Positions 292-34,955 of a stretch of 37,461 bases of DNA are shown one piece after another. Source of the DNA: a virus (taxonomy: Duplodnaviria > Heunggongvirae > Uroviricota > Caudoviricetes); the IMG/VR virus record IMGVR_UViG_2875703104_000006, one strand, 5' to 3'. Below the pieces are notes generated by a model. It was given only the letters and a program-made list of their open reading frames with translations. It searched no databases and was not told the origin of the DNA. Numbering within the stretch: position 1 is the first letter of the stretch; each line of letters starts with the position of its first letter. The translations under genes were made by a program, and so were the position numbers.

Positions 292-2498
292 ACGACCTCT
301 TTTAATTGCCTGTCATTTAATTCTTTATGCCATATGCGGAAATTGCGAATATGGCCAAACAGATGTCGTTCTCCAGTATTCGTCTGCCCTCCAAATCGGA
401 TATTTTTATCAGCGGTCACNCCATTATATTCACAATAAACTTCATTAACCGCTTTACCATTTGTCACCACATGAAAGTGACCATCAGCTTTTGCAATACA
501 TCCAAATGTGGTTTTCTCTGCAAATACATCTGTCGCTGCGCTATTAACATACNAGCCTGAAGGGTTTGACAGACTCATATATAACTTACCACTACCTCTG
601 TTGATTGCTGCAATTGCTGATTGCCCGGTATTGGCTGCTGCTATATCCCACACGCGGGGTGCGGCGTTTGGTGCAATATCCCAGTTTTTATGAATCTCAA
701 GTAAAAAAGTAAATGGTAACTTATAAAGATTATTTCTGGTGGGGATACTAACCAAATCACTGGCTCTTGTCGTTGCGCTGCCTCCTGAAATAATAAATGA
801 TGATACACACGGCCCATTCTCTACTTGTGGGGTGGCAAGATAAATATAGTCACCAGATACTGTTGCCCCACCCNGCTCAGGAGAATACTGTATCTGAGAG
901 CCTATTTTTAACTCACCATCAATTGCCTGAATCGTTGCCTCTGCAAAAATCCAGCCNGTGGTCTTATCCTTCCTGACTCGTGCCGTAATTCTGCCGGCAG
1001 CNCCACCTGTCATATTAATTTCAAGCGTTTGCGTATCAATGTACGCATCGCCAAGAAAAGTTGTTGCACTACCATCATACTTATCAAACCGTATACGTAA
1101 CCTTACCTGTCGTTCTGTTTTAAAACGGCATGAGGTTGTCACGTACTTGTTATCGCCTGAGACATCAACTGACTTTGTTGCAGCAATTGATGCCATATTA
1201 ATAGCCGAAGTTTGCCCAACCAGAGAATCGTTGCAGACAAACTTTCCATAAGTAAAACCAAAACTATCNGTCCCGGTTTCGGGCACATCCATGTTTGATG
1301 ACTTCCCCCAGCTGGCTGGACTTTCCGAATTGAGCATGTAGTTCGTTCTTTGTCCCTCAATAAGCAGGCCATCACACTCAAATCGCGGCTCATTAATTTC
1401 CGCCGTTTTCAGTTCGCCAGATTTGTTGATATATGTTGCCGTTGATGCGCGACTGAAATTAACCTGTTTATCACTGGCGACCTGAACCACATCGTCACCA
1501 ATAGCTATTTTTTTATAGCCCGGAGAAAAACCCGCAATCATATCCAGTGAATCGTTAAACGGTATCCACACATCAGGCAGCGGCGGCACTATATTCGCAT
1601 AGGGCTCTGCAGTCACTTCCGCTGCGNCTTCTGCGCGGTCTGCCGCCTTTTCAGCNCGTGTCGCTGCCGACAGAGCCTCATCCTTTTTCTGCCCGGCCTT
1701 TGTTGCGTCTGCTGCNGCCTCCCGCGCTTTTGTGGTGGCGACTCCGGCATTTTCAGCGGCTGACTCTGCATTACGGCGGGAAGCCTCTTCACTGTCTGCG
1801 GAGGCTTCTTCTGACGCACGGGCATTTGTCTCTGAACGTTCTGCCGCTGTTGCTGCGTTTTGTGCGGCTGTTTTTGAAGAAGCTGCCGCTTTCGCGCTGT
1901 TACCTGCATTCGTCTCTGATGNNNNNNNNNNNNNNNNNNNNNTGTCTGCGGAGGCTTCTTCTGACGCACGGGCATTTGTCTCTGAACGTTCTGCCGCTGT
2001 TGCTGCGTTTTGTGCGGCTGTTTTTGAAGAAGCTGCCGCTTTCGCGCTGTTACCTGCATTCGTCTCTGATGTTTTCGCCGCGTTCCTGGACGATGCCGCT
2101 GCTGTTTCTGATTTCTTTGCTGCCGCTGCGCTCTGAGAGGCGGCTTCAGCGTTGCGTGCCACATCCTCCACCATTACCTCAAAACGACGCAATGCCTCCG
2201 GCATGACATCATCTTCCGTCATGGCACCGAGAAAATCATTCAGCGTACCTGGTCTGGAACCTTCATAGACGGTAATGGTCCCGGCATGTGAAGGCGGAAA
2301 ACCTTCAACCAGCAGGGTGACGCTGTACTGGCCATACTCAACATCCATGCTGTAACGCCCGGCTTCATCCGGATTTTCAGAGGCCACCGTGTTCACCAGT
2401 ACCGTGGTGCTGTTACGCTTTGCTTTGAGCTGAATAGTACAGTTCTGTATTGGTTTTCCTGCACCGTCTTTCAGCACGCCTGAAATCTGTACTGCCAT
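288..2498 (-). CDS. stf: Side tail fiber protein (Stf-like); contains a duplication/gap artifact
   Basis: N-terminus MAVQISGVLKDGAGKPIQNCTIQLKA... matches the lambda Stf N-terminus; long Ala/Ser/Thr-rich repeat region; ATG at 2496-2498 preferred over the track's GTG at 2504. Internal 129-bp exact duplicate flanking N-run 1922-1942. Confidence 0.85.
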   Translation of the reverse strand: MAVQISGVLKDGAGKPIQNCTIQLKAKRNSTTVLVNTVASENPDEAGRYSMDVEYGQYSVTLLVEGFPPSHAGTITVYEGSRPGTLNDFLGAMTEDDVMPEALRRFEVMVEDVARNAEAASQSAAAAKKSETAAASSRNAAKTSETNAGNSAKAAASSKTAAQNAATAAERSETNARASEEASADXXXXXXXXSETNAGNSAKAAASSKTAAQNAATAAERSETNARASEEASADSEEASRRNAESAAENAGVATTKAREXAADATKAGQKKDEALSAATXAEKAADRAEXAAEVTAEPYANIVPPLPDVWIPFNDSLDMIAGFSPGYKKIAIGDDVVQVASDKQVNFSRASTATYINKSGELKTAEINEPRFECDGLLIEGQRTNYMLNSESPASWGKSSNMDVPETGXDSFGFTYGKFVCNDSLVGQTSAINMASIAATKSVDVSGDNKYVTTSCRFKTERQVRLRIRFDKYDGSATTFLGDAYIDTQTLEINMTGXAAGRITARVRKDKTXGWIFAEATIQAIDGELKIGSQIQYSPEXGGATVSGDYIYLATPQVENGPCVSSFIISGGSATTRASDLVSIPTRNNLYKLPFTFLLEIHKNWDIAPNAAPRVWDIAAANTGQSAIAAINRGSGKLYMSLSNPSGXYVNSAATDVFAEKTTFGCIAKADGHFHVVTNGKAVNEVYCEYNXVTADKNIRFGGQTNTGERHLFGHIRNFRIWHKELNDRQLKEVV

Positions 2499-2519
2499 AT
2501 TCACTCCACAAATAAAAAA

Positions 2520-2537
2520 GGCGCCATTTCTGGCGCC
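2520..2537 (-). terminator. Hairpin GGCGCCA-tttc-TGGCGCC followed by a T-run on the minus strand, just downstream of J
   Basis: 7-bp perfect stem, 4-nt loop, A-run on plus strand (T-run on minus). Confidence 0.5.
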
Positions 2538-2556
2538 CGTATTTGGGTTATAAAAT

Positions 2557-5500
2557 TCAACTGATACTGATACCGGCTGTTGATTTCTTCATCACGACAA
2601 CAAGAAGGTCGCTGATACTGGTCGTTGGCGTCCAGTTATTTGCACCATATGAAGAAACATTGAAAGTCAGGGTGACATGGCCGTGTCCCGCTGGCATATC
2701 AATGACGGATGAAAATACCCTGCTGACATCCGTCGCGGGTTGCTGAAAGATTTCCTGTCCGTTCTTCAGTACCTGCAGCTTACAGGTTGAATACCAGTAT
2801 GACTGTTGGTTGTTGCTGTTGAAGTTTTCATGCTTACCACCGCGAAACAGAACGGGTGGGATTACTATCTGACGGTCAAAAGCCTGGTCATCGTACACAG
2901 TGACCGTTATTGTACCGCTGGCATAACTGCCATTTCTCGGAAAGGCTTTTCCCACCGTTTTGACAATATCACCTTCAATCTGGTTGGCAGACAGTTTTCC
3001 CAGAATCCGACAGTTCTGGTTAATCGTGACATTATTGAGCGTCCCTGAGTTCGCATTCACGTTACCGCTGATATCGGCATTTTTCGCCGTCAACCGCCCG
3101 TCCGGTGTCAGGGAAAATACCGGCGGATTGCCGCCGCTGGTAATGGTGGGAGCCGTCAGATACTTCAGGAACACTTCGTTCATGAATATCTGGTTGCCCT
3201 GCGCCACAAACATCGGCGTTTCATTCCCGTTTGCCGGGTCAATAAACGCGATACGGTTAGCGGCAACCAGGAACTGGCTCAGTTTGCCTTCCTCCGTATC
3301 CTCCATGCTGAGGCCAATACCCGCGACATAATGCCTGCCGTCTTCGGTCTGCTCAATTTTGACGCCCCACATGGCATTCCATTTATCGTTGGCGTCTTTC
3401 CACTCTTTCGAAAACTCCTCCAGTTTGCTGGCGTTATCCTCCGTCAGCTCGACTTTTTCCAGCAGCTCCTTGCCGAGATGGGATTCAGTTATCTGGCCTT
3501 TGAAAAAATCCAGATAGCCGGAAGCATCATCGCTCGCCTGACCGACAGCCTCCACGAATGCCGATTTGCCAACAGTATTCACACTGCGGATATAAAAATA
3601 ATAATCATGGCCCGGCTTAATATTGATACTGGCAGCTATCCAGTACAGCGCCGTGCCAAGATAGCGGGCTGTGGTTTCAACCTGCCTGATATCGGTAATC
3701 CGCTTTTCCGAGAACCAGAATTCAAACTGTACCGTCGGGTCATAAACGGCAAGATGCGGCGTGGCGGTTATCTGAAAATAGCCCGGCGTCAGATCAATCC
3801 TCGACGGTGCTGCCGGTGCGGCAATCCGGAACGATACCGACGCCGGATCGCCCTGCTGCCCCCACGCATTTACCGCCCGGACTGTCAGCGTGTACCGCCC
3901 CAGCGCCAGTTGCGTGAAGCGGTATGTGGTTTCCGTCGTCCGGGCCGTGCTGACCAGCCGCTCACTGCCGTCATCCGCTGCCACGGTCAGGCGAAGCATA
4001 AAGCTCACCCCCTTCACCACCTTCGGCGTGTCCCAGCGCGCCAGCACCTGATANNNNNNNNNNNNNNNNNNNNNTGTGGTTTCCGTCGTCCGGGCCGTGC
4101 TGACCAGCCGCTCACTGCCGTCATCCGCTGCCACGGTCAGGCGAAGCATAAAGCTCACCCCCTTCACCACCTTCGGCGTGTCCCAGCGCGCCAGCACCTG
4201 ATATTCCCCGCTGTCTGCGGTGACTTCGGCAGTCAGGTGCTGCACCGCTGGCGGCGTGACACCATTCACCGTGCCGCTCTGGTCGCCGTCAAAGTGCGCC
4301 CCGTTATCCACGATGGCCTCTTTTTCCGGTACATGCTGCACGGCAGTGATGGCATACGTGCCGTCATCGTTCTCACNNNNNNNNNNNNNNNNNNNNNCTG
4401 GCGGCGTGACACCATTCACCGTGCCGCTCTGGTCGCCGTCAAAGTGCGCCCCGTTATCCACGATGGCCTCTTTTTCCGGTACATGCTGCACGGCAGTGAT
4501 GGCATACGTGCCGTCATCGTTCTCACGGATACTCACGCAGCGGAACAGGCGCTGGCGCAACGTCGGCAACTTCAGCCCCCACACGCTGTATCCGGCAACG
4601 CCGTCAGGAACCCGGCTCACTTTTACCTTCACGCCGTCGGTGACGGACTGGACCTCCACGCTGACCGGATTGCCGCTTCCGTCAACCAGGCTTATCAGCG
4701 TGGTACCGGAGGATGGCAGAGTGATTTCACGGTCGAGCGTCAGCGTCCGGGTCTGGCTGTTCACCGCCAGCACGCGCCCGCCGATGCTGATACCCGCATA
4801 GTCATCATCGCAGATTTCAATAACATCGCCCGGCACATGGCGAAGCCCTTCTGCGCCCACGCTGAAATCCACGGTCTGCGTTTCCAGCAGTTCCGTTTTA
4901 ATCAGCCACAGCCCGGCTCGGTGTGCCTGCCCCCGACTGGTACAGCCAAAGGCATCCATCTTCGTGACGTTACGACCGTAACGGGCAATGGCCTGCGTGT
5001 CCTCCACAAGCTCTGTCGCCGTCTCCCAGCCGTTATCCGGGTCAATCCAGTTCACCTCAACGGCATTATGGCGGTCCTTCAGGGCGCTGAAACTGTAGCG
5101 GAACGGCGCGCCATCATCCGGCATCACCACATTACTGCGGTTATAGGTCCACACCTTATCCGACGGCCGGTCCTGCACGAACGTCAGCGTCTGCCCGTTC
5201 CATACCGGCATACAGCGCATCGCCGAGCAGAAATCACTGAGAACATCCCACGCCTTACGCTGTGTGGTCAGCCAGGCATTACAGGTGATGCGCGGCTCCG
5301 TGCCACCAAAACCATCCGGCACCGACTGGTCGCAATTCTGGCCGATGACATACAGCGCCCATTTGTCCACATCCGCCGCACCAAGACGTTTCCCCATGCC
5401 GTAGCGCGGATGGGTCAGCATATCCCACAGACACCAGGCCATGTTGTTGCTGTATGCCGGTTTTAACGTTCCGTCCCAGATACCGCTGTATTGTCGCGTC

Positions 5501-6245
5501 TGCGGGTTATAGTTCGACGGCACCTGCAGAATGCGCCCGCGCAGATGATAATTACGACTCACCTGCTGACTGCCGAACTGCTCCGAGTCCACCTGCACAC
5601 CGACCAGTGCCGTGTTCGGGTAGCACTGTTTCATATCGATGATTTCGGTGTATGACGACCAGAGCGTTTTGTTCTGCAGCTGGTCTGTGGTGCTGTCCGG
5701 TGTCATCCTGCGCATCCGGATATTGAACGGGCGCGGAGGCAGGTTATCCACCACCACCGAGGCCAGATACTGCGAGGTGGTTTTGCCCTTAATGGTGATG
5801 TCTTTTTCCGTCACCCAGCCACCGTTACGCTGTATCTGAACCAGCAGGCGAACTTCCGACGGATTCCGGTCACCCTTTGAAGTGGTTTCCACCAGTGCCT
5901 GCACACCGAAGGTAAAACGCAGACGGTCGATGTTTGCCGACGTGATGGTGCGGGTGATCGGCGTGTCGTATTTCACTTCCGTACCCAGCACCGTCTCGGA
6001 GCCGGAGGATTCAAACCCCTCCGGCGGAGTCTGCTCCTGCTCACCTGCCCGGAACACCACCGTGACACCGGAGATATTGGTATTCCCCTCAGTGTCCAGC
6101 ACCGGCGTACTGTTCAGTAGCACGCTTTTTAACCCATCCACCGGACCTTCAATCGGCCCTTCGCTGATGGCATCGATCACACTCAGTAACTGCGTGGATT
6201 TCAGGTTGTCCTTCGCTTCGCGCGGGGTATGCCCCTTACTGCTGC
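2557..6245 (-). CDS. J: Host specificity / central tail fiber protein J (lambda gpJ-like), lacking its own start codon and read in frame from the upstream fragment
   Basis: Translation [42 protein letters not shown]... matches lambda J from about residue 4 through a long stretch; the reading frame carries two internal duplication artifacts around N-runs 4054-4074 and 4377-4397. Confidence 0.9.
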
Positions 6246-6447
6246 CTTTATACGTTTTACCGAGCATGATGTCTTTTCCTGTATGCCCGTGACATACAGT
6301 CCATACACCAACAATATCTTTGTATGGTATGTAGCTGACACCTTCCAGGCCATCGTCACCACTCGGACCAGTGATGAGCACAGACGCTATGGCAACAGCC
6401 CCACCACCAATAGCAGCAGCAATAGCCTTGCGTAATGATGGCGACAT
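6246..6447 (-). pseudogene. N-terminal 67 codons of a phage-21-type SAR endolysin (signal-anchor-release domain) fused in frame to J
   Basis: [67 protein letters not shown] resembles the R21 SAR endolysin N-terminus as recalled; frame continues directly into J at about 6245; start overlaps the pinholin stop (ATGA at 6447). Confidence 0.7.
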
Positions 6448-6662
6448 TATTCACCTCTCGCAGCCTTACGCTTATCTTCTTTAATCTTGAAATAAAGGTT
6501 TGTCAGATACGTCAGCAAGCCAAATACCAGACTACCCAGCACACCTATTGCCGCCCACTGTGAGGGCGTGACTTTATCGAGCAACTGTAAAAACCAGTAC
6601 CCGGCACTACCTGCTGAGGTGCCATAGGCGACACCCGTTGTTAACTTATCCATGGATTTCAT
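6447..6662 (-). CDS. S: Class II holin (phage 21 S-type pinholin) with dual-start motif MKSM
   Basis: 71-aa product [71 protein letters not shown]; two TM segments; Met1/Met4 dual start typical of the S21 holin/antiholin pair. Confidence 0.85.
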
Positions 6663-7401
6663 AACCCCACCCCGCAGACAAAGCGGGTGTAAATTAAGGG
6701 GATACTACGTATCGCAATAAAGGCAGAAACGTAACAGATTCGGAGTCAGTGAATAACTCAGGTATTGGGTTATCAGCTAATATCGAGACTCAAAAAATGG
6801 AAAAACCCGCTCGACGGCGGGTTTAAGCTGTGTGACGAAGTAACCACTCTTAACAGCATAACCAATTTTTTACGTACGTAAACTACTAAATGATATTTGT
6901 GAGAATGCCACCGAGTGTTCAAAACACNNNNNNNNNNNNNNNNNNNNNGGAAAAACCCGCTCGACGGCGGGTTTAAGCTGTGTGACGAAGTAACCACTCT
7001 TAACAGCATAACCAATTTTTTACGTACGTAAACTACTAAATGATATTTGTGAGAATGCCACCGAGTGTTCAAAACACCACCACAAATACATAAGAAAACT
7101 TCAACAAATAACCAATGAATAATTTCCGATGTTATTTTTAGTTTGTTTAAATTAAGTTAAAGAATTATAGGGCGCTTATAAATAAGTGCCATTAATATAA
7201 ATTAGCTAATAGATTTATTTTCGTTCAAACAAGAGCCATGAATAGGATTAGATAGAAAAGGTTCAGATAAAAATAGAGATCTACTTCACAAATTAAATGA
7301 GAAACTAAAACTTACATCTTGAAATAATCGCATTGATTAGATGAATATTTATCGCGCAGTGACATCATTTTTTAATAATAGTTCAAAAAAAAGGGCGTAC
7401 A

Positions 7402-7690
7402 ATGAAAAAATTAACAGTGGCAATTTCTGCTGTAGCTGCATCAGTACTGATGGCGATGTCTGCTCAGGCAGCTGAAATTTATAATAAAGACAGTAACAAG
7501 CTGGATCTATACGGGAAAGTTAATGCCAAGCACTACTTCTCCTCTAATGATGCAGATGATGGTGATACTACTTATGCCCGTCTTGGCTTCAAAGGTGAAA
7601 CCCAAATCAACGATCAACTGACTGGTTTCGGTCAGTGGGAATATGAATTCAAAGGCAACCGTGCTGAATCTCAAGGTTCTTCCAAAGANA
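7402..7690 (+). pseudogene. nmpC: 5' fragment (about 96 codons) of an NmpC/OmpC-family porin gene; truncated
   Basis: [95 protein letters not shown] matches the NmpC signal peptide and first beta strands; similarity ends near 7690 (N at 7688) and a stop follows at 7716. AT-rich promoter region upstream (7080-7400). Confidence 0.8.
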
Positions 7691-7997
7691 AGATAAATTG
7701 TCTCTTCACTCCCTGACAGGGGCGATTCTTTTCAAATCGCCATTTCGCCATGGCCTTCACCACTTCATCACGAAACAAATTATGAGGCTCTGAGCGGAGA
7801 AAAACGATCCGTGTCACAGTCCCATCAGCACCAATATCGAACTTAACCTCAACCAGCCCCTTGATATAATTTGCTGCAGCATATTCCGGATATCGTGGAT
7901 ACACCGTCACTAATTGCCGGGGCTCATCAGCTTTTTGCTGCGAGCATCCCACTGCCAGGACAGATAACAGAAAAAGTAGTAAAAGGCGTCTTTTCAT
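7671..7997 (-). CDS. Lipoprotein with TonB C-terminal-like domain
   Basis: Start [21 protein letters not shown] (lipobox LAVGC) with SD AGGA; body [56 protein letters not shown] resembles the TonB_C fold motif. 3' end overlaps the nmpC remnant antisense, so the C-terminus may be non-native. Confidence 0.5.
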
Positions 7998-8307
7998 TTT
8001 TATTCCTACGGGTCTTATTCTGACAATATATCCTGTGTTCCAGACTGCCACATCACCACATCCTGTGCCATTATCTGACTCACATTACATACATCGCATC
8101 GGGATACAGTAGTAGCACTTTCTGTAATACAGCTTCCTGTTTCTTCCACCATCGCACCGGGATAAACCCGCGAATCATTAACGCGGTAAAAACCCGGTGT
8201 GCATCGTTTTTAATTATCCCCGCACACTCGCGCAGAGGAGTCTCCCTGTCGGGCTGCGGTCTCTGTTAATGAGGGAATATAGCGACGATACGGCGCATCA
8301 ACAAAAC

Positions 8308-8781
8308 TTATTTCAGGCACTGAGTGCGGATATAGTCCTGTGCCCCTTCCAGTTGCTTGTGCATCGTCATCAGCCGCTCTCTGAGGGTGAAATAATCCCG
8401 TGTAACGGTGTCTGCCAGTTGGGGGCCGGTTGCATTATCCACGCCGGAGGTGGTGGGGGCTTCACGCACGGAGCCTGGACAGGTGGCGTTGATCCGCAGG
8501 CGCTTACGACCAGCGGCAACGTCAGCGCGAAGAGTTTCATTTTCAGCTCTCGCATCGGCTAATTCCCTCGAGTATTTTGCATCGAGCGCAGCAACATCGC
8601 GCTGGCGCACCTGCATATCAGTAATGGTTGCGTTCGCCAGCTTCAGTTCACTGGCTTTGTTATCGCGCTGCGCTTTGTAGGTAATCGCGTTATCACGGTA
8701 ATGGTCTGTTGCCATCCACAGCGCACCACAGGCCACCAGCAGAATAACGATAAACGCGGAAAGCATTCGGTTTATGTTCAC
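8308..8781 (-). CDS. Rz: Spanin inner-membrane subunit Rz (i-spanin)
   Basis: N-terminal TM segment then [15 protein letters not shown]...[15 protein letters not shown]...[25 protein letters not shown], closely resembling lambda Rz. Confidence 0.85.
8370..8555 (-). CDS. Rz1: Spanin outer-membrane lipoprotein Rz1 (o-spanin), embedded in the +1 frame of Rz
   Basis: [56 protein letters not shown]: lipobox, proline-rich, close to lambda Rz1; start within the listed ORF is uncertain. Confidence 0.8.
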
Positions 8782-8909
8782 CCCAGCAACCCCGACGAAG
8801 ACAACATCATCCAGGCCATGGAAAGAAAAAGAGCAACCAGCATTAGTGAAAATGAAATGCCGACAATTACACAGAGGATCTTCGCCAGCGTTATGAGTTT
8901 GTCTGACAT
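8778..8909 (-). CDS. Small hydrophobic ORF between endolysin and Rz (43 aa)
   Basis: [43 protein letters not shown]; one TM segment; stop overlaps the Rz start (ATGA). Could be noncoding. Confidence 0.3.
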
Positions 8910-9262
8910 GCTTAATCCTCCCTTCACGATTTCAACGCAATGACCAGTTTTGCCAGCCCATACAGCATCGGGGACACAGCAACACCGACCGCCACCCACT
9001 TAATGGCAAAAGCCAGTGCTCTGCTGATGTCATCAGTTACAGGCGCTTTCAGTTCAAGGCCATTTTTCATAGTCAACCTCAACAGAATTCGTTTACACTT
9101 CGCCATGTTCTCCCTTGCCTTACTCAAGGTCAGAAACACAAAACCTCGCTTGGTGCCAACAAACGGGGTTTTTACTTTTATTCACTTACGTTTCGCCAGT
9201 TCGCAGGATTTCGTGTTATCCGCCCGCGTGGCCATTCCTCATTTTTCAGCAAAATATTCTGC

Positions 9263-9796
9263 TTATCTGTCGATACCCCAGCACGCCAGCGCGCTCTCCT
9301 GGTCACGACGGGATACCTGACCGTAACAGTTGTTTGAACGAATACGGCAGTCTCTGCCACCGTCCTTAATCCACCAGCGAATCGCTTCGCAGGCACCTTT
9401 TCGATCACCAGCATTAATTCGTCTGTAAAACGTCGACGGGAAACACTTACCGGGACCAATGTTGTACGGACAGAATGACGCGATCCCCGCTTTCTGGGGT
9501 TCGGTCAGCGGCACTCTGATGTTTTTCTCCACCCACGCCAGCGCTTTATCACGCTCAATGGCGTTAACCTGGTCGCATTTTTCCTTCGACAACTTCATGC
9601 CCGGAACGACAGGTTTGCCATCCACCATGATGGCACCACGGCAGATGGTCCAGATACCTGCACCATCACGGTATGCCGTGGTGTGGTTGCCTTCCTTTTC
9701 ATCCAGAAACTGGTCGAGAATGTCAGGCGCAGGCGCACCAGCGGCAATCAGCGCCAGAACGGCAGCCGACAGGCCGTATTTGATTTTGGTGTTCAT
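9263..9796 (-). CDS. R: Phage lysozyme (GH24-like endolysin) with Gly/Ala-rich N-terminal signal-anchor (SAR-type)
   Basis: 177 aa; N-terminus KYGLSAAVLALIAAGAPAP is a weakly hydrophobic SAR-like segment; body resembles lambdoid prophage lysozymes. Confidence 0.85.
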   Translation of the reverse strand: MNTKIKYGLSAAVLALIAAGAPAPDILDQFLDEKEGNHTTAYRDGAGIWTICRGAIMVDGKPVVPGMKLSKEKCDQVNAIERDKALAWVEKNIRVPLTEPQKAGIASFCPYNIGPGKCFPSTFYRRINAGDRKGACEAIRWWIKDGGRDCRIRSNNCYGQVSRRDQESALACWGIDR

Positions 9797-9832
9797 GGAT
9801 ATATTAAATATTCAGCCGCTGTCCCTGGCCCA

Positions 9833-10726
9833 CTAAATACGCACTTTAAGATAAGTCAGCCCCGGATGAAGCCAGTAAGCCGGCACTTTTTTAAAGGGTG
9901 GAGTATTAAAATCACGAAGAAGAGCCTCCCGCACAATTGCATCCTTATCAGCACCACTGGCCAGCGCTTCAATCTCAGCGGCTACCTGAAGATATCCCAT
10001 GCAACGGCCAACGCGCTTCATCAGCCCCTGCTTTTTATTGTTCTTCAGGTAATCAATGGCAAATTCAATGAGCTCCTCACTGTGCTGGTGCGATGGAGGT
10101 GTTACTTTCCCATTTTCTGAGATGGTTATTTTCCCAGCATCACCGGATACAACAAAGGATGGCCGGTTACACTCCCATTCCGGGTCACTGAAATTATCAT
10201 TATGAATACTGAAACACTCTGCGAGATTTCTGCTCATCACTTTCCGACAATAATCGTCAAACGCAGCAAACTGCTTTTCATCGCCAGAAGGCACCAATAT
10301 CGACCATTTCTTATTCAGCTCAACGACGTAGCTCTCCAGTTTTTCAATACGTGATTCAACATCATCTTTTTCTGACCGCAGTGTTGACGGCGGCATCTTC
10401 AGAGAACAAGTAATTCTTCCCGGTAGCTTTCCTTTGTAGGTTATCAACACATCCTGCGCCTCTAAAATTACGGGGCGCTTTTCCGGCAACGGTTCGTTCC
10501 ATTCACATAACCCGGCAGCAACATCCATGAAAAACTGCTTCGCCTGCTTTTTCGCCTCAGCTTCGTAAAACTCCAGCGTGGCACCTTCAGTACGGTCAAG
10601 ACTAATCGCCACATCTGGCAACAACAGCGACGCTTGCCCGTCACCTTCCGACTTCACAGTAACAGTAACCTTATCCCCGTAATTATTTATCCCCTTAACA
10701 ACCAGTTCATATTTTTTATTCATCAC
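9833..10726 (-). CDS. Hypothetical 297-aa protein inserted between holin and endolysin
   Basis: Clean ORF, start 2 nt after the holin stop, ends 37 nt before the endolysin start; no recognisable motif. Confidence 0.6.
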   Translation of the reverse strand: MMNKKYELVVKGINNYGDKVTVTVKSEGDGQASLLLPDVAISLDRTEGATLEFYEAEAKKQAKQFFMDVAAGLCEWNEPLPEKRPVILEAQDVLITYKGKLPGRITCSLKMPPSTLRSEKDDVESRIEKLESYVVELNKKWSILVPSGDEKQFAAFDDYCRKVMSRNLAECFSIHNDNFSDPEWECNRPSFVVSGDAGKITISENGKVTPPSHQHSEELIEFAIDYLKNNKKQGLMKRVGRCMGYLQVAAEIEALASGADKDAIVREALLRDFNTPPFKKVPAYWLHPGLTYLKVRI

Positions 10727-10727
10727 T

Positions 10728-10934
10728 TTACTCTCCCCGCGCCGCCTTACGCCGGTCCTCTTTGATTTTGAAATACAGGTTAGTCAGGTACGTCAGCAGC
10801 CCAAACAGCAGACTCCCCAGCACGCCTATTGCCGCCCACTGAGACGGGGAAACCCTGTCCAGCAACTGCAGGAACCAGTAGCCCGTTCCCACCGCTGACG
10901 TGGTGTATGACACACCTGTTGTGATTTTTTCCAT
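10728..10934 (-). CDS. S: Class II holin (S21-type pinholin), single start
   Basis: 68 aa [68 protein letters not shown]; paralog of the 6447-6662 holin. Confidence 0.85.
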
Positions 10935-10945
10935 CTGGTACGTGA

Positions 10946-11128
10946 CTACGGAATGAGCGGATCTTCGGGTTTGCTTCCGGCTGACTGACTGGCGCTGATT
11001 CTCTCAGCGGCCCTTTTATCAATCTGCCTGCGCCAGAAATCGCGCACTGCCCTGTACCCACCCGAAAGAAGATACATAACACAGACTGCCATACAGAAGT
11101 ACAGCATTACCTGATGAATAAATGTCAT
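10946..11128 (-). CDS. Small membrane protein immediately upstream of the holin (60 aa)
   Basis: N-terminal hydrophobic segment [13 protein letters not shown]; stop 12 nt upstream of the holin start; weak SD. Confidence 0.4.
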
Positions 11129-11264
11129 AATTTCTTACCGTTATGGTTGACAATGAGAACTGTTTTCATTTAGAAATGATTGATGTCGAAAGCATCTTTT
11201 CTTTACATTCTCCATTGGGATTACCTCCGCCAGCTTCCATTCCTGCCGCTGGCGGCTTTTTTTA

Positions 11265-11532
11265 TCATGCCGCGATGTCCGCGTTGTTCACTTCCACCTT
11301 CACACTGTCAATCAGCAGCGTATATGTCGCCGCCTTTGATATGCCTGTCAGTTGCAGTTTGTCCGCCGCCCCTGATGCCGGAGACCGCCGCAATGGCCTG
11401 CATCAGGGTATAAGGCGTGATGGCCACCGGACTGCCAAATGGCTGCCACCCCTCCTTCAGTTTTTGTGTCAGTCGTTTCGCAAGGTCTGACGGCGATGCC
11501 GCCCTGACAACATCATAGTGTTTAAATGCCAT
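11265..11532 (-). pseudogene. Internally deleted remnant of the NanS-p-like esterase gene (first about 45 codons joined out of frame to the last about 40 codons)
   Basis: 11410-11532 matches the 5' end of the intact gene at about 16250-16375; 11265-11390 matches its 3' end at 14264-14390. Confidence 0.7.
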
Positions 11533-11792
11533 GGTTCTTTCCACCATCTGAAAAATAATTCTTTAAAATACCTGACATGTAATACAGAAAAAACACAAAA
11601 CCATACCTTAAATAAAAACCTCATCATCAAGCAGATATGCATGGATAAACTACAAGACGAGATATAAACCACCCTGCATTTAAATAAACAATAAACAACA
11701 TCAGAAAAATAATTCTGCTCTATGGTTTACATTCAAAAATATCATTTATACTTTTCAGAACATCACCAGCAAGACATAAACAAGGAAACTAA

Positions 11793-12128
11793 ATGAAGTG
11801 GATTGTGATTGATACAGTTATCCAGCCATCATGCGGAATATCTTTTTCAGTCATATGGAGTAAAATAAAATTAATAATCTGGTATCAATCGGATGCTTTC
11901 TTACCTCCTGAAAGTATATTTACACTGACTCACACAGGTATCATGCTCAATAACAAAGTGCTACCTGTAACCATTTACAACGTAGCACCATTCAATAAAA
12001 CATTCTGGAATTTAATCAAAAACAGCCAGGAATGTCCTACAAATACAGATAACGTATTGAATGAATGCTTTAATAACCGTTGCACTCTGCAAATATGTCC
12101 TTATGGACTAAAACAACAAAGTCCATAA
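11793..12128 (+). CDS. Hypothetical ORF in a strongly AT-rich island (111 aa)
   Basis: Only plus-strand ORF in this segment; atypical composition; no motif recognised. Confidence 0.25.
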
Positions 12129-12159
12129 GGAGTTTACTCACATCTGACAAAATCAATAT

Positions 12160-12420
12160 AAACAGCCCCTCCGGAGAGGGGCTGGAGAGTGGCGCTATGT
12201 GCCATTGCATGGTGCCGGGTGCCTCCCGGTGAATTCAGTACCAGCACCTGAATCCGCGATTATCCCATATACCTACTCGCTGATTGCCCCTCCGCACAGG
12301 GGGATTCACCATGCCAGTTTCTTTTAACAAACTCCCCGCAAACCAGACAACAGTCAACCGCCTGAATTGTGAAGTATTTAAAAATTTCTCCCGCTAACTG
12401 ATACCCGGCTAACAGTCTGG
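12160..12420. repeat. Copy 1 of a roughly 250-bp repeat family containing the perfect palindrome AGCCCCTC-cgga-GAGGGGCT
   Basis: Near-identical to 17082-17335 and related to 16595-16800. Confidence 0.6.
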
Positions 12421-12575
12421 CGTTTTCTTTTTCAGCAACGGGAAAGCAACAACCACCACACCCGCCACCAGCACACCGTCAGCCAGCACTGACATTATCC
12501 GGCTGCTGCAATGCCACTCACAAAAACAGTAAGCAATCACTTTTTACCGTAACAAGTGATAATCCAGATATGTAT

Positions 12576-12929
12576 CTACCCCAGATGAGTAATCCGAAGT
12601 TCATCCATACCACAGGTACTGGCTATTCTGTTGTACTCCTGAACAAGAGCAAATAATTCTGAATTAGCAACCATGAACTCATCGCAAACCCTCTGTATAG
12701 CATCACTATTCAGAATAATAACGTCTCTTCCCGAAAGACGATCAGGAGTACAGAACAAAACTGTCAAACGGCTGAAGGCCTTTGCTCGTCCTGCATTGAC
12801 TATATCAATACGCTGCCTAAGGATGAAACACCCCGACGCCTCATCAATATTCACTCTACCCACACCATATGAATGATAAATATTTAATGCTGAAAAAACC
12901 ATTAGACCGTATAACAAACACTCAATCAA
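12576..12929 (-). CDS. Hypothetical 117-aa ORF at the position equivalent to TerB (and to stx in Stx phages) in the decayed module copy
   Basis: ORF with hydrophobic N-terminus MIECLLYGLMVFSALNIY; lower GC than surroundings; no obvious SD; coding status uncertain. Confidence 0.3.
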   Translation of the reverse strand: MIECLLYGLMVFSALNIYHSYGVGRVNIDEASGCFILRQRIDIVNAGRAKAFSRLTVLFCTPDRLSGRDVIILNSDAIQRVCDEFMVANSELFALVQEYNRIASTCGMDELRITHLG

Positions 12930-13042
12930 TACTTAACAGAACTTTTATTTTTGACAAACATAAAATATTTTCAACAATATCCTGAGCCAGGTATATTTCA
13001 GTATAAGGCTCTGCCGGAAGGAATCTGGAAGAATGAATATAG

Positions 13043-13116
13043 CGCGCTGTACTGGATTCGAACCAGTGACCGATTGCTTAGAAGGCAATTGCTCTGTCCG
13101 GCTGAGCTAACAACGC
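13043..13116 (-). tRNA. argO: tRNA-Arg (anticodon UCU)
   Basis: Cloverleaf readable by eye: 7-bp acceptor stem GCGTTGT/ACAGCGC, anticodon loop CTTCTAA, T-loop GGTTCGAATCC; end coordinates approximate. Confidence 0.8.
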
Positions 13117-13129
13117 TGAATACCGATAA

Positions 13130-13210
13130 TGGACCGCCATCGGGGACCCGCCCCCGCACCAACAACCCTGTTATCGTGTCGTCTGCTCTTCCTGATAAGC
13201 TAATGGCGGT
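13130..13210 (-). pseudogene. Degenerate tRNA-like sequence at the position of tRNA-Arg(UCG) in the other cluster
   Basis: Acceptor ends (accgccat...atggcggtcca) conserved with 18195-18271 but D-arm and T-loop disrupted. Confidence 0.35.
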
Positions 13211-13216
13211 TTGTGA

Positions 13217-13292
13217 TGGTGGCCCTTGCTGGATTTGAACCAGCGACCTGGCGATTATGAGTCGCTCGCTCTCACCACTGAGCTAAAGGGCC
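13217..13292 (-). tRNA. ileZ: tRNA with anticodon CAU (Met, or Ile2 if lysidine-modified; ileZ-like)
   Basis: GGCCCTTTAGCTCAGTGGTGAGAGC...anticodon loop CTCATAA...GGTTCAAATCC...GGGCCACCA with encoded CCA. Confidence 0.8.
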
Positions 13293-13337
13293 GGGAGCAG
13301 AATAATAACGGTCCGTAATTAATTCCGCAATAAAAAA

Positions 13338-13435
13338 CCCGCTCGGCGGCGGGTTGTAGAAACTCTTCTAACGCCAGGCATAAAAAGCCCATTGTTATGA
13401 CGAATTTACCACAGATTCCGGAAAAATCAACCTTG
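13338..13435 (-). promoter_or_regulatory. Late promoter PR'-like (-35 TTGATT, -10 TAAATT), Q-utilisation region and tR'-like terminator downstream of Q copy A
   Basis: Minus-strand sequence TTGATTtttccggaatctgtggTAAATTcgtcataacaatgggc resembles lambda PR' and its early transcribed region; followed by hairpin CCCGC-n6-GCGGG plus T-run at 13338-13353. Confidence 0.55.
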
Positions 13436-14267
13436 TTACCTAGTTACCTTTTTTAACTGCCGCTCAGCCCATGCTTCTTCAATATCAAACCGGGTCACCA
13501 GCGCATCATAGAATTTCTTAACTGTTTTTTCCCATGACGCGCGTGTTATCTGGTTTGTCACCTCGCATATAGCATTAAATGCCTCCGTTGATGGTAGTCT
13601 TTCATAGCCACGACCACCACAACGCTGGCAGTCTCTGATAACAGGCATACCACGTTTTACCGACTCTTCACGATGAATGGCGACACCACGCCCACGGCAA
13701 TCCTTACAGGCGGTGGAAACCTCACCCTTTCCGCCACACTCCGGACAGGCAACTTTTACCACCTCCCTGACTTTTTTCCATACCACGTTTTACCGACTCT
13801 TCACGATGAATGGCGACACCACGCCCACGGCAATCCTTACAGGCGGTGGAAACCTCACCCTTTCCGCCACACTCCGGACAGGCAACTTTTACCACCTCCC
13901 TGACTTTTTTCCATTCTTCCCAGTAAGACGAATACACACCTTTCGTACACTTTGCCCATACCGGCGGCTTACCATCCGGATACTGGACCTTGTTTGTAAA
14001 AACTACGCTTTCAATAAATTTTTCCCCATAGCAACAAGGGCACTGCTTTTTACTCGCTGCGCTGCGGGCATAATCCTCAAAAGCGTACGAAGCCATAATG
14101 CGCATCACTACCGGTTTTATTTCTGCCGGAAGTTTTCTCAACGCCGCCACACGATCGCACCGACTGAGTGCATAATCTGCCAGTAATTCTGTTGCCCGCG
14201 CCCTGTCATTCATACTGATGCCCATTTTCCCCAGTCCATTCCTGCCGCTGGCGGCTTTTTTTATCAT
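13436..14267 (-). pseudogene. Q: Antiterminator Q, copy A: native N-terminus replaced and frame broken by a 133-bp exact tandem duplication
   Basis: Q-like sequence with zinc-binding CPECGGKG...CKDCRGRG; duplicated 133-bp units at about 13648-13780 and 13781-13913; 5' end abuts the nanS-p 3' end. Confidence 0.75.
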
Positions 14268-17933: not shown

Positions 17934-18106
17934 TGTGACGTTCCTTTGGGTGGGTGAGCCAACGCCCGGGAGCGATCTGCCCACAGAGAAAGTCACACTG
18001 ACCACTCCGTAAGCTCACCCCCGAAAGGCTCTGTGGTTGATATGCGCCGGGCGTGGCGCGGATACAAAAAAGGCCCGCAAAAGCGAGCCGGGAAAAATAA
18101 GTCTGG

Positions 18107-18180
18107 CGCGTTGTACTGGATTCGAACCAGTGACCGATTGCTTAGAAGGCAATTGCTCTGTCCGGCTGAGCTAACAACGC
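18107..18180 (-). tRNA. argO: tRNA-Arg (anticodon UCU), second copy
   Basis: Near-identical to 13043-13116. Confidence 0.8.
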
Positions 18181-18194
18181 AGAATGCCGATAAA

Positions 18195-18271
18195 TGGACC
18201 GCCATCGAGGACTCGAACCCCGCGCAACCAGCTTCGAAGGCTGGCGCTCTATCCCGATGAGCTAATGGCGG
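18195..18271 (-). tRNA. argN: tRNA-Arg (anticodon read as UCG; argN-like)
   Basis: CCGCCAT TA GCTC ATCGGGATA GAGC G CCAGC CTTCGAA GCTGG ... CGGGG TTCGAGT CCTCG ATGGCGG T CCA; all four arms pair. Confidence 0.75.
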
Positions 18272-18280
18272 TATGTGATA

Positions 18281-18356
18281 TGGTGGCCCTTGCTGGATTT
18301 GAACCAGCGACCTGGCGATTATGAGTCGCTCGCTCTCACCACTGAGCTAAAGGGCC
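18281..18356 (-). tRNA. ileZ: tRNA with anticodon CAU (Met/Ile2; ileZ-like), second copy
   Basis: Identical to 13217-13292. Confidence 0.8.
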
Positions 18357-27350: not shown

Positions 27351-27497
27351 TACCGCCCTTTCGGACGGCCTCCTGATGTTCTGAGGGTGCAGAAATCCCT
27401 CCGGTTAAGGATTTGATTTTATTTACAGTGCTAAATTTAATTATTCAGTTCTGGATTTTGTCGCCCTGCATATCCGCGCTTTCGCGTTACGCTCAAT

Positions 27498-27797
27498 CTA
27501 AATTAACTTTTCTATATTTTTCCGCCTTTCCTGTTCCTCCTGGCGCAATAGCCTTACATCATCTGCCAGTCTGGTTTCTCTTTTCGCCACAGAGAGCATC
27601 CAGTCAAACGGCTCCACAACTGCACCGCAGATTTTACAGCGGACCTGACGCTCTTTTTCGTCAACCCGAACAGAGGCGTGATGACAATATGGTCTTTCCG
27701 ATGGCTCATAAAGAAAATTAACCTGATTACGAGGGTCATCCTCTTTTACCGGAAATAAAACGATATTGCTTAACTCATCCTCTGGTTTTATTTCCAT
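27498..27797 (-). CDS. Cys/His-containing 99-aa protein, copy 1 of a tandem gene duplication
   Basis: YCHHASVRVDEKERQVRCKICGAVVEPFDW suggests a zinc-ribbon-like motif; protein identical to copy 2. Confidence 0.55.
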   Translation of the reverse strand: MEIKPEDELSNIVLFPVKEDDPRNQVNFLYEPSERPYCHHASVRVDEKERQVRCKICGAVVEPFDWMLSVAKRETRLADDVRLLRQEEQERRKNIEKLI

Positions 27798-27939
27798 GCT
27801 CCTCTCCTNCGGCCTCCTGATGTTCTGAGGGTGCAGAAATCCCTCCGGTTAAGGATTAAATTTTTAACAGAGCTAAATTTAATTATTCAGTTCTGGATTT
27901 TGTCGCCCTGCATATCCGCGCTTTCGCGTTACGCTCAAT

Positions 27940-28239
27940 CTAAATTAACTTTTCTATATTTTTCCGCCTTTCCTGTTCCTCCTGGCGCAATAGCCTTACA
28001 TCATCTGCCAGTCTGGTTTCTCTTTTCGCCACAGAGAGCATCCAGTCAAATGGCTCCACAACTGCACCGCAGATTTTACAGCGGACCTGACGCTCTTTTT
28101 CGTCAACCCGCACAGACGCGTGATGACAATATGGTCTTTCCGATGGCTCATAAAGAAAATTAACCTGATTACGAGGGTCATCCTCTTTTACCGGAAATAA
28201 AACGATATTGCTTAACTCATCCTCTGGTTTTATTTCCAT
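27940..28239 (-). CDS. Cys/His-containing 99-aa protein, copy 2
   Basis: Differs from copy 1 at three coding positions, all synonymous. Confidence 0.55.
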   Translation of the reverse strand: MEIKPEDELSNIVLFPVKEDDPRNQVNFLYEPSERPYCHHASVRVDEKERQVRCKICGAVVEPFDWMLSVAKRETRLADDVRLLRQEEQERRKNIEKLI

Positions 28240-28678
28240 GCTCCTCTCCTTTGATGCGAATGCCAGCGACGCGTAATGCGTGTTCTAAGTCAATCAGGTA
28301 AAGCCAACTGCCATTTTCTTTAGGTATCATGACATGTCGCTCATCTGCATTTATCGGGTGTCCATATCGAAGGTCGTAGCGAGTCGGTAATTGAACTTCC
28401 CGCGCTTCCAGTTCAGCAATACGCTTGCTCCCATCAGAGATAACGCCTTCGTAATACTCACGCTGCTCGTTGAGTTGTGATTTTGCTTCTTCCAGTCCAT
28501 CCAGCAAATCAGCGATAATATCCGCTTCCCGATGACGGATGTGACGCTTAAACGCAGCAAGAGCCGCATCACAATCCCGTTCAGCATTTGGGCTGTCCGG
28601 GATAGCCTGATACCACGCCAGCGTCGACTGATAGTTTTGTGCTGCCTCACGAAGCGCCTCATAGTTAACCTCTCTCAT
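28217..28678 (-). CDS. Hypothetical protein (153 aa)
   Basis: ORF; helical, charged. Confidence 0.4.
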   Translation of the reverse strand: MREVNYEALREAAQNYQSTLAWYQAIPDSPNAERDCDAALAAFKRHIRHREADIIADLLDGLEEAKSQLNEQREYYEGVISDGSKRIAELEAREVQLPTRYDLRYGHPINADERHVMIPKENGSWLYLIDLEHALRVAGIRIKGEEHGNKTRG

Positions 28679-30845: not shown

Positions 30846-31674
30846 GGTTTACCCCCTTGCTGACTGGCTTAACCTGCGCCCTGACGTGATTTACGTGACG
30901 GGCGAATTTCTGCTCCCACTGAACCTGCGTGAAAACTTTCCCCTCCGCTGCCCAGTAGTCCCGGAAAGCGGCAAGTTCAGCAGGTGTAAATTCCGGCTCC
31001 GGCAAAGCCATCCCCCACAACGCAGCCCGTCGTCGAAAATCCGGCGACGGATGCCAGTCATCGACCATCGGAAATTTCCCGATGGGTTCGCTCAGTCCAT
31101 CCAGGGATGCAGGTTCTGCTGCCTGCAACGGCGTACCACTCGACTCACTGGTCGGAGCACTCTCGCGCACGTGCGCGTTATGTGTGGGGTTTAATTCTTT
31201 ATCTGTATCTTTATCTGTCGTGACTCGTCGTGACATGTCGTGACATATGCGTGACTCGTCGTGACACCCCTCATTCTGTTTTCGTAATTTTTCCCTCTCG
31301 CGCTGCGCTCTCTTGCGCTCTGCCGGGGATTTCGCGGTTTGTGAAACGTTGCCATTGTCCTCTTTCAGTACCTGGCGTTTTTCCCATCCGGTGATTAAAT
31401 CTCCATCAAGTACCCGCCCCTGCATTGCCTGTAAAATTGAATCAATTACTTCTTCCGTCACATCAAGCGCACTTGCTAAATCTTCCGTCGTGACATCAAT
31501 GTGACCACGTAGTGACACGCCGTGACATGTCGTGACATTTCGTGACGCGCTCACCAGAAGGTGGATATACACTGCCATCACTGTTGCAATTGGCTGCCCT
31601 GACACCCTGGCAATTGTTCGCCACTTAGGGTCATTTGGCATGTCATGCCATAATCTGAGCCAGGCGTTAGCCAT
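30634..31674 (-). CDS. Replication initiator (O-like; DUF1376/YdaU-like N-terminus, DnaT-like C-terminal region) containing two iteron clusters
   Basis: N-terminus MANAWLRLWHDMPNDPKW; ATG at 31672-31674 preferred; 5' end lies inside a 151-bp duplication artifact (N at 31711), so the exact start is uncertain. Confidence 0.6.
   Translation of the reverse strand: MANAWLRLWHDMPNDPKWRTIARVSGQPIATVMAVYIHLLVSASRNVTTCHGVSLRGHIDVTTEDLASALDVTEEVIDSILQAMQGRVLDGDLITGWEKRQVLKEDNGNVSQTAKSPAERKRAQREREKLRKQNEGCHDESRICHDMSRRVTTDKDTDKELNPTHNAHVRESAPTSESSGTPLQAAEPASLDGLSEPIGKFPMVDDWHPSPDFRRRAALWGMALPEPEFTPAELAAFRDYWAAEGKVFTQVQWEQKFARHVNHVRAQVKPVSKGVNHAAAPGGTASRAVQEIRAAREQWERENGFISDGNGLEAVGTHGGGLFEPLDPEERGRTFEALDCTDWRDD
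31217..31264. repeat. Iteron cluster 1: five GTCGTGAC-type repeats at about 10-bp spacing (candidate ori)
   Basis: Repeats begin at 31217, 31227, 31237, 31249, 31257. Confidence 0.6.
31487..31546. repeat. Iteron cluster 2: six (C)GTGAC(A) repeats at 10-11-bp spacing
   Basis: GTGAC at 31490, 31501, 31512, 31522, 31532, 31542. Confidence 0.6.
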
Positions 31675-33962: not shown

Positions 33963-34283
33963 ATGGAATTTAAAGATTTACCAATGCCATTCCAGGAAAT
34001 GGCAGCGAATATAGTTCGTTCCCAACTGGCGACTCTTGACCTGAGTACCGTAGAAAAAGAAACCATCGATACTATATCCGGTAACGTGCGTCGTGCCTTT
34101 ATCGGTCTGTACGAAGAGAAGCTGCTCTCTGATAACCAGGATTTACATGAAAAATACTTCCTGGATCTAATGGACATCATTGATAAGGGGTTTGGCTTGT
34201 TAATGAAAACGAAAGGGATTCGAATAGAACCCCTTGAAAATTACTTTGCAACAAAAAGCATTAATTCTTTTGATTCAAAATAA
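33963..34283 (+). CDS. Hypothetical early-left protein (106 aa)
   Basis: ORF starting 3 nt after the previous stop. Confidence 0.4.
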   Translation: MEFKDLPMPFQEMAANIVRSQLATLDLSTVEKETIDTISGNVRRAFIGLYEEKLLSDNQDLHEKYFLDLMDIIDKGFGLLMKTKGIRIEPLENYFATKSINSFDSK

Positions 34284-34536
34284 GAGAATTAATTACAGAC
34301 TTAACATGCTCTTTCTCATGATTGAAGCTCTCATGATTGAAAGTGCCGGGTTGAAGCGAGTCGATATAATCAACAAGACTCTGTCGTACGACTTCATTTT
34401 TATCCATAACAGATGCAAGAAATGAAATTGCTAAAAGAGTTATATCACTACGCGCCGCAGCATGCTGCAATGCTTTATCAAAATTATTAATCTGGCGTAT
34501 CAGGGAGTTAATGATTTCATCATTTTCAGTCGACAT
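34261..34536 (-). CDS. Hypothetical 91-aa protein encoded opposite to the surrounding operon (moron-like)
   Basis: ATG at 34534-34536 preceded by strong SD AGGAGGG; AT-rich; convergent 3' overlap with the 33963-34283 gene. Confidence 0.5.
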   Translation of the reverse strand: MSTENDEIINSLIRQINNFDKALQHAAARSDITLLAISFLASVMDKNEVVRQSLVDYIDSLQPGTFNHESFNHEKEHVKSVINSLILNQKN

Positions 34537-34695
34537 TTCACCCTCCTGAGGGTTGGTGATTAAGGAGTTCTCCACGGGTGAGGTGGAGTGCGTGCGCCGG
34601 ACACGGGTGAGCATCCGGCACTGACAGTTTACTGAAAGGATATTTCCCTGAAAAGTCAGACCATAACGCGAAAGCGCTCGGCGAGGTAGCTGGTT

Positions 34696-34955
34696 CATAG
34701 ATAGCCTGTCGTTAAATTTTCGTCGACCGTGCGCTTCCGGTTGTGGCAATCCGCGAAATGGCGCGGCGGTAAGTATGGCGGGGTTATTCCTTCCCCCGTT
34801 GAGGACACCGGGTTGTCAGGTTGACCATAGATAGCCTGTCGTTAAATTTTCGTCGACCGTGCGCTTCCGGTTGTGGCAATCCGCGAAATGGCGCGGCGGT
34901 AAGTATGGCGGGGTTATTCCTTCCCCCGTTGAGGACACCGGGTTGTCAGGTTGAC
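34696..34955. repeat. Exact tandem duplication of a 130-bp GC-rich noncoding unit (probably artifact)
   Basis: Units 34696-34825 and 34826-34955 identical. Confidence 0.6.

Follow-up and report, generated by a model that had tools for sequence, protein, structure and literature searches.

Why should a single viral record carry ten short duplications, nearly all of them exact and half of them split by runs of N of one and the same length? The window, i.e. the whole 37,461-nt stretch of IMG/VR record IMGVR_UViG_2875703104_000006, contains five runs of 21 N, each with an exact 129-bp copy on either side and a period of exactly 150, at the positions at which an initial annotation had placed them (Table). 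The further exact tandem copies listed there do exist, although some lie about 2 nt away from where they had been put; the pair at 31560, given as 151 bp, proved to be longer, and a tenth site, J12, had been missed. All four copies at the two period-133 sites, J8 and J11, are identical, and the N-free duplications, in Q (133 bp) and between genes (130 bp), have junction microhomology of 3-4 nt. Exact 129-bp repeats at five unrelated loci cannot stem from chance.

Table. Joins, skipped segments and ambiguous bases in the window, with their counterparts in the closed genome of E. coli EcPF40
Feature	Position in window	Location and coding effect	Closed genome and neighbouring contigs
15 single Ns, first contig	115-1716	tail-fibre region	sole differences from closed genome
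J1, 129 + 21 N + 129	1793-1921/1943-2071 (Ns 1922-1942)	inside stf-like tail-fibre gene, in frame	window 1-1921 = L001 20001-21921, 1943-4053 = L001 21793-23903; 129-bp overlap
J2, 129 + 21 N + 129	3925-4053/4075-4203 (Ns 4054-4074)	inside gpJ, in frame	L001 23775-23903 common to both pieces
J3, 129 + 21 N + 129	4248-4376/4398-4526 (Ns 4377-4397)	inside gpJ, in frame	L001 23948-24076 common to both pieces
J4, 129 + 21 N + 129	6799-6927/6949-7077 (Ns 6928-6948)	intergenic, essD/porin gene	L001 26349-26477 common to both pieces
Chimeric join I/II, single N	7689	icd-side prophage remnant to potC-side prophage lysis region	genome 1955648 to 1899692
Abutted contigs, 357 bp skipped	10941/10942	DUF826 gene	both reference prophages carry the gene; end of left contig exactly 150 nt into exact inter-prophage repeat (L003 26591 to 26442)
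Abutted contigs, 1,694 bp skipped	11384/11385	nanS-p body	right contig starts 149 nt inside repeat
J8, N-free tandem copy, period 133	13646-13914	Q gene, potC-side prophage; frameshift	L003 21551-21686 common to both pieces
Chimeric join II/III	14234/14235	potC-side prophage to ompW-side prophage	genome 1891230 to 2091582; left contig ends 149 nt inside 161-bp exact repeat
Collapsed two-copy repeat contig, 6 single Ns	14235-16216	nanS-p	
J10, 129 + 21 N + 129	16088-16216/16238-16366 (Ns 16217-16237)	nanS-p 5' end, in frame	L002 29602-29730 common to both pieces
J11, same N-free tandem copy as J8, period 133	20240-20508	Q gene, ompW-side prophage; frameshift	
Single N	27334	small unclosed gap or join	replaces 9 nt of reference (ATTATTTTG)
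J12, 443-bp overlap, 98% identity, N at 27809	27366-27808/27810-28250		
J13, exact 152-bp copies, N at 31712, period 153	31560-31711/31713-31864	covers start of O-like (DnaT-like) gene	
J14, N-free tandem copy, period 130	34696-34959	intergenic, dicB/hypothetical gene (RefSeq annotation)	

Piece by piece, the window aligns to the closed genome of E. coli EcPF40 (NZ_CP054214.1) with zero base differences outside the joins and Ns, and every duplication sits at the boundary between two independently alignable pieces. Adjacent pieces overlap in this reference by 129 bp (five times), 136 bp (twice; 133 net), 443 bp, 152 bp and 134 bp (130 net). The initial annotation had proposed a technical origin and comparison with a closed genome: at all nine sites that it listed, NZ_CP054214.1 has one copy, and the flanking pieces overlap by exactly the duplicated length. 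The pieces form three parts, I, II and III, which map to 1.96, 1.90 and 2.09 Mb of the reference. Upon removal of one copy per site, 0 non-N mismatches remain over 7,088 bp of part I, and in part III the remaining differences are Ns and one 9-nt gap. The second copy at J12 is a mosaic of paralog variants, with 7 mismatches and a 2-nt deletion relative to the reference. At least 80 complete genomes match the sequence around the N-free duplications at 99% identity or more, without the junctions; a search of the GenBank phage collection returned relatives only, at 89-95% identity and partial coverage.

Judged from this tiling, the window is a scaffold that wrongly joins three separate prophage regions of one E. 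coli genome. No complete genome carries parts I and II together (not one record covers 80% or more of window 1-12500), and the 5,426 complete E. coli genomes searched lack the arrangement of II and III. The nanS-p repeat contig has been placed once only, at the start of part III, and 11236-11384 equals 14235-14383 exactly over 149 nt. Three of the six single Ns in this contig (15455, 15770 and 15855) coincide exactly with the three paralog differences in the closed genome; the Ns of the first contig are likewise what a consensus would be expected to show where a near-identical repeat has been collapsed and the base is ambiguous.

The lengths involved are highly regular, and contig ends found 149-150 nt inside exact inter-prophage repeats fit the read-length-scale origin that had been suspected at the outset. 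Pieces S9 and S6 end 149 nt and 150 nt, respectively, inside such repeats, and S7 and S10 overlap by 149 nt. The exact repeats common to two prophages at the N-free sites measure 166 and 169 bp, and the length of the duplication is 299 minus the repeat length R (166 gives 133 at J8 and J11, 169 gives 130 at J14), where the sum of 299 needs 150 nt on one side and 149 nt on the other. The 149/150 value fits eight contig ends or joins, with no single k or read-length value fitting all; the 152-bp (J13) and 443-bp (J12) overlaps depart from the 149/299 arithmetic, and in the 443-bp case the contig begins in the paralog mosaic. Duplication size appears to follow from k or read length, i.e. from a technical setting, and not from local sequence. 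As for the 21 N, S8 and S11 are the two exits from one inter-prophage repeat: S8 starts 149 nt inside it, the visible start of S11 lies 139 nt inside, and the visible end of S10 stops 10 nt before the repeat boundary. From these offsets, which come from one site (J10), we infer a composition of 10 + 1 + 10, with which they would agree. The idea that the 21 N are a masked adaptor or part of a 150-nt read was discarded, as all five loci would then need the same 129-nt insert.

The duplications are almost certainly assembly artefacts, namely untrimmed overlapping contig ends in a mis-chained short-read scaffold. They most probably arose in the following manner: An E. coli genome all but identical to that of EcPF40 would have been assembled from short reads, and the contigs chained into a scaffold. 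From its anchor in unique sequence, a contig would extend into any exact repeat by roughly the length of a read (149-150 nt), and neighbouring contigs would therefore have common ends. If the chaining program wrote the contigs in succession and did not subtract the common end, a false tandem copy would result at every join. Joins between a repeat contig and a unique contig would have a period of 150, presumably made up of an overlap of 149 nt and a spacer of 1 nt; masking of 10 nt on either side of the spacer would then yield the 21 N. At J8, J11 and J14, a short repeat contig of 166 or 169 nt would have been left out and the contigs next to it set end to end, whereby the false copy comes to 299 minus R. 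Since many near-identical blocks are common to the three lambdoid prophages, the chaining most probably took wrong turns as well, hence the chimeric scaffold of three prophage regions from which two segments are missing, and N would have been written in collapsed repeats where paralogs differ. The contig breaks at J1-J4 may be caused by another paralog or by strain mixture; the other two prophages (L004, L005) have J/stf regions of only 65-91% identity, which rules these out as the cause.

A different technical step is an unlikely, though not negligible, source of the copies: a gap-closing or read-extension tool may have extended both edges of true scaffold gaps with reads and missed their meeting, leaving overlapping ends and some Ns behind, in which case the contigs would not have overlapped originally. 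Extension with 150-nt reads would also give a copy plus gap of 150 and a penetration of 149-150 nt into repeats, and the single N that replaces a real 9-nt gap would suit such a tool. Local extension varies, however, whereas a constant 129 bp over five unrelated sites, together with the dependence on R, looks deterministic and graph-like; moreover, the stretch between J2 and J3 (4075-4376) is a separate 302-bp piece that behaves as a contig of its own.

Biological origins fare considerably worse than untrimmed contig ends. It is very improbable that recombination between prophages truly gave the three-part arrangement, with only the small duplications being artefactual. Lambdoid prophages do recombine via common blocks, and the joins lie in or beside such blocks, but contiguity of I and II would need a 56-kb deletion removing potAB, pepT, phoPQ, purB, mnmA and icd, the II/III join is no simple deletion, neither arrangement was seen in the 5,426 complete genomes, and segments of 357 bp and 1,694 bp are missing from this very scaffold where contigs abut. 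The N-free junctions were searched with probes of 47 nt, the halves of which are shorter than the 28-nt seed; a 133-nt probe was uninformative, each half seeding its own match. Probes over the 133-bp and 130-bp junctions found no match in the 5,426 complete E. coli genomes, so that the recurrence in related genomes expected of a genuine tandem duplication was not seen there; the halves of the 133-bp junction match 2,414 records, as a single copy. Neither an exact-pattern scan of viral, genome and metagenome contig collections for the 133-bp junction nor a look-up of the frameshifted Q ORF by its exact protein sequence gave a match. Least credible of all is that some of the N-free duplications are real in the source strain, as their lack of Ns and a microhomology frequent in replication-slippage duplications might suggest, since their junctions are missing even from the genomes with near-identical surroundings, an identical 133-bp event would have struck two Q paralogs exactly within their common 166-bp block, the 299 - R rule predicts their lengths, and the antiterminator Q of both prophages would be inactivated. 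All in all, there is very little chance that at least one N-free duplication (133-bp Q or 130-bp intergenic) or one inter-prophage join is real in the source strain; if it were, it would testify to a recent slippage event, or to recombination among the lambdoid prophages resident there, and not to assembly error.

In de Bruijn and string-graph assemblers, adjacent contigs have k or k-1 bases, or read length minus 1, in common. The copies in the window resemble such untrimmed contig-end overlaps in their fixed exact length, their presence at every contig boundary, their tie to repeat boundaries and their disappearance once one copy is removed. They differ in the implied length of 149 nt (129 visible), which does not match common default assembler maxima such as 127 or 141, and in the unusual 21-N filler. 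With genuine tandem duplications of phages and prophages they have in common the head-to-tail exact copies and, at two sites, the short junction microhomology; in contrast to these, their sizes are uniform, Ns stand at junctions, no independent genome carries them and the same event is found in two paralogs. False duplications made by assembly, some of them beside scaffold gaps, give rise to false gene structures in vertebrate genomes (Ko et al. 2022, PMC9516828), and the vertebrate cases described by Kelley and Salzberg (2010, PMC2864568) are reported to result from assembling both versions of a region that is polymorphic in a diploid. Duplicate sequence is made by assembly in those described cases as well as here, but the source here is a haploid bacterium, the copies measure 130-443 bp, and the cause would be common contig ends at inter-prophage repeats.

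The duplications are no real biological feature. Their value lies in quality control alone: they mark a mis-chained scaffold, the features of which need correction before interpretation or downstream discovery. Other windows from the same source may be flagged by (i) a period of 150 with 21 N, (ii) N-free copies as long as 299 minus the repeat length and (iii) single Ns in collapsed repeats. The odd gene order, the frameshifted Q and the occurrence within one “phage” of two Q genes and two lysis/nanS modules are products of assembly, as are the lengthened J, stf and nanS-p proteins. The initial annotation had held that the duplication lengths are mostly not multiples of 3 and would shift the frames of stf, J, nanS-p, Q and the O-like gene. 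A frameshift results in the two Q genes only (period 133); 129, 150, 153 and 444 are all divisible by 3, and the O-like CDS is intact downstream of the J13 junction. The gpJ ORF stays open and is longer by two in-frame insertions of 50 codons each (1296 aa vs 1196), and one in-frame insertion of 50 aa each is found in the stf-like protein (624 aa vs 574) and in nanS-p (703 aa vs 653), whereas Q at J11 is truncated to an ORF of 222 aa, compared with 273 aa.

The window contains 130 Ns, of which 25 are single and the others form five runs of 21; each of these runs sits between two exact 129-bp copies at a period (copy length plus any N gap) of exactly 150. The two-copy arrays that are N-free or carry a single N were found with Tandem Repeats Finder and a repeat finder; in the two arrays of period 133, all four copies are identical. 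Repeat finding bore out the nine exact duplications listed in the initial annotation, the coordinates being right to within ~2 nt, although one copy described as 151 bp measures 152 bp and the list was incomplete: a tenth overlap, of 443 bp at 27366-28250, was absent from it.

Among 5,426 complete E. coli genomes, a group of strains, including EcPF40, SCU-204, DS566, MCJCHV-1 and a strain labelled EcST1193, matches the window without a base difference except at Ns and at the joins, where neighbouring contig-like pieces meet. Since MCJCHV-1 and the strain labelled EcST1193 are among the best closed matches, the source is probably an ST1193-type E. coli. The window was aligned to three regions of EcPF40 (NZ_CP054214.1) and divides accordingly into parts I to III. 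Part I consists of five pieces of the icd-adjacent prophage remnant, with exactly 129 bp of reference sequence common to each pair of neighbours, and part III of six pieces of the ompW-adjacent prophage, with reference overlaps of 129, 136 (133 net), 443, 152 and 134 (130 net) bp. As the pieces overlap in the reference, the window exceeds the reference length by exactly the duplicated blocks. With one copy removed per site, part I has no mismatch apart from Ns across 7,088 bp, and the sole real differences in part III are its Ns, of which the one at 27334 takes the place of 9 nt; another gap, of 2 nt, in the collapsed alignment of part III is an effect of the excision, the second copy at the 443-bp site being 2 nt short. 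In this comparison with a closed genome, which the initial annotation had proposed, collapse to one copy thus restores the EcPF40 sequence.

Duplicated blocks, reference correspondence, affected genes and tRNA clusters of the window
Feature	Window	EcPF40 (NZ_CP054214.1)	Remark
Part I	1-7691	1,962,738 down to 1,955,648	prophage remnant adjoining icd
Part II	7690-14234	1,899,692 down to 1,891,230	prophage adjoining potC
Part III	14235-37461	2,091,582 down to 2,069,356	prophage adjoining ompW
129-bp copies + 21 N	1793-1921/1943-2071		exact, period 150
129-bp copies + 21 N	3925-4053/4075-4203		exact, period 150
129-bp copies + 21 N	4248-4376/4398-4526		exact, period 150
129-bp copies + 21 N	6799-6927/6949-7077		exact, period 150
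129-bp copies + 21 N	16088-16216/16238-16366		exact, period 150
Two-copy array	13646-13914		exact, period 133
Two-copy array	20240-20508		exact, period 133
Two-copy array	34696-34959		exact, period 130
152-bp copies + N at 31712	31560-31711/31713-31864		exact, period 153
443-bp overlap, N at 27809 between	27366-27808/27810-28250		98% identity
gpJ	ORF of 1296 aa	1196 aa	two in-frame 50-codon insertions
stf-like	ORF of 624 aa	574 aa	one in-frame 50-codon insertion
nanS-p	ORF of 703 aa	653 aa	one in-frame 50-codon insertion
Q (ompW side)	ORF of 222 aa, truncated	273 aa	frameshift
Q (potC side)	split, N-terminus lost		frameshift; cut by chimeric join at 14234
O-like	intact	intact	CDS downstream of its junction
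tRNA cluster	13042-13292		Arg-tct, Met/Ile-cat; downstream of one Q gene
tRNA cluster	18104-18356		Arg-tct, Arg-tcg, Met/Ile-cat; downstream of other Q gene

The three parts map to separate places of one genome, at 1.96, 1.90 and 2.09 Mb; the window is a wrongly chained chimera of three prophage regions and unreliable as a whole. Contiguity of parts I and II as a real event would need a 56-kb deletion including phoPQ, purB and icd, and neither the I+II nor the II+III arrangement is held by any of the 5,426 complete E. coli genomes. Given their separate loci of origin, the apparent pair of Q copies, like the doubled lysis and nanS modules, stems from two different prophages. Compared with both reference prophages, 357 bp at 10941/10942 (the DUF826 gene) and 1,694 bp at 11384/11385 (the nanS-p body) are missing from part II, and both deletions are silent, no N flagging either; the two prophages carry the nanS-p body in near-identical form, and the assembly placed it a single time, at 14235-16216. 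The useful outcome is thus a warning about the entire window, in which other findings resting on gene order or copy number are suspect.

The overlap lengths relate to the many near-identical blocks that the potC-side and ompW-side prophages have in common, within the exact portions of which contig ends fall at fixed distances. The contig ending at 14234 extends for 149 nt into an exact repeat of 161 bp, that ending at 10941 for 150 nt into an exact block of 2,021 bp, and the start at 11385 lies 149 nt inside the nanS-p repeat; the reference overlap between contigs 10942-11384 and 14235-16216 is 149 nt. At the N-free sites, the exact inter-prophage repeats measure 166 bp (Q) and 169 bp, and 299 - 166 = 133 and 299 - 169 = 130 are exactly the observed periods, so both flanking contigs enter the repeat by about one read length and were abutted, the repeat not being long enough to remain as a contig of its own. 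The clearest 21-N case is 16217-16237, where two nanS-p repeat exits are expected at one repeat coordinate: one begins 149 nt inside the repeat, the other becomes visible at 139 nt inside it, and the visible part of the repeat contig ends 10 nt before the repeat boundary. This one site fits a composition of the 21 Ns from 10 masked positions, 1 spacer and 10 masked positions, by which a true overlap of 149 nt would yield the period of 150. The 152+N and 443+N overlaps fall outside the 149/299 arithmetic. In the latter, the second copy is a mosaic of both paralogs' variants and also carries two bases present in neither; it is therefore the beginning of a contig built from mixed paralog reads, and the source genome may contain a third paralog.

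A 133-nt probe over the Q junction matched the single-copy block only, as two halves; therefore, 47-nt probes were used, the halves of which are shorter than the 28-nt seed, such that a match needs a true junction. With these probes, the 5,426 complete E. coli genomes yielded no match to the 133-bp or the 130-bp junction, and the 133-bp junction had no match in viral, GTDB-genome and JGI-metagenome contig collections. With single copies in the closed genome, matching overlaps and N-free junctions unmatched in the searches, the technical origin proposed in the initial annotation is right: the duplications are an assembly and scaffolding artefact, in which shared contig ends were left unmerged. 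The artefact is of a familiar general kind and biologically nothing new; passages in two published accounts document assembly-made false duplications in other genomes (PMC2864568, PMC9516828).

The expectation that sizes other than multiples of three would shift the frame of stf, J, nanS-p, Q and the O-like gene holds for both Q genes only. For most sites the premise is wrong, as periods of 150, 153 and 444 preserve the reading frame; stf, J and nanS-p merely acquire insertions, and the O-like gene is unaffected. The sites at 6928 and 34826 are intergenic.

Three single Ns stand at joins (7689, 27809, 31712), and the N at 27334, replacing 9 reference nt (ATTATTTTG), is a small unclosed gap and not an ambiguous base. 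Six Ns at 14504-15855 are the sole differences from the reference in their contig, and three of these (15455, 15770, 15855) are exactly the three nanS-p paralog differences in the closed genome; such Ns therefore mark ambiguous consensus in collapsed repeats. Likewise, 15 Ns at 115-1716 are the sole differences in the tail-fibre contig, which implies a second, ~99% identical tail-fibre copy in the source sample. Such a partner was not found in two paralogous EcPF40 stf regions, which are at most 91% identical, and could reside in another prophage or reflect a strain mixture. Nor was a repeat or variant behind the contig breaks inside J and stf found in the EcPF40 paralogous regions examined.

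A ~10-nt unit (GTCGTGACNN) recurs in four to five copies at 31217-31265, within the O-like (DnaT-like) replication gene; these are a natural feature outside the artefact and, by analogy with the lambda ori, look like origin iterons. tRNA clusters downstream of Q are the usual lambdoid late-region arrangement, and the CAT-anticodon tRNA is annotated as tRNA-Ile in RefSeq.
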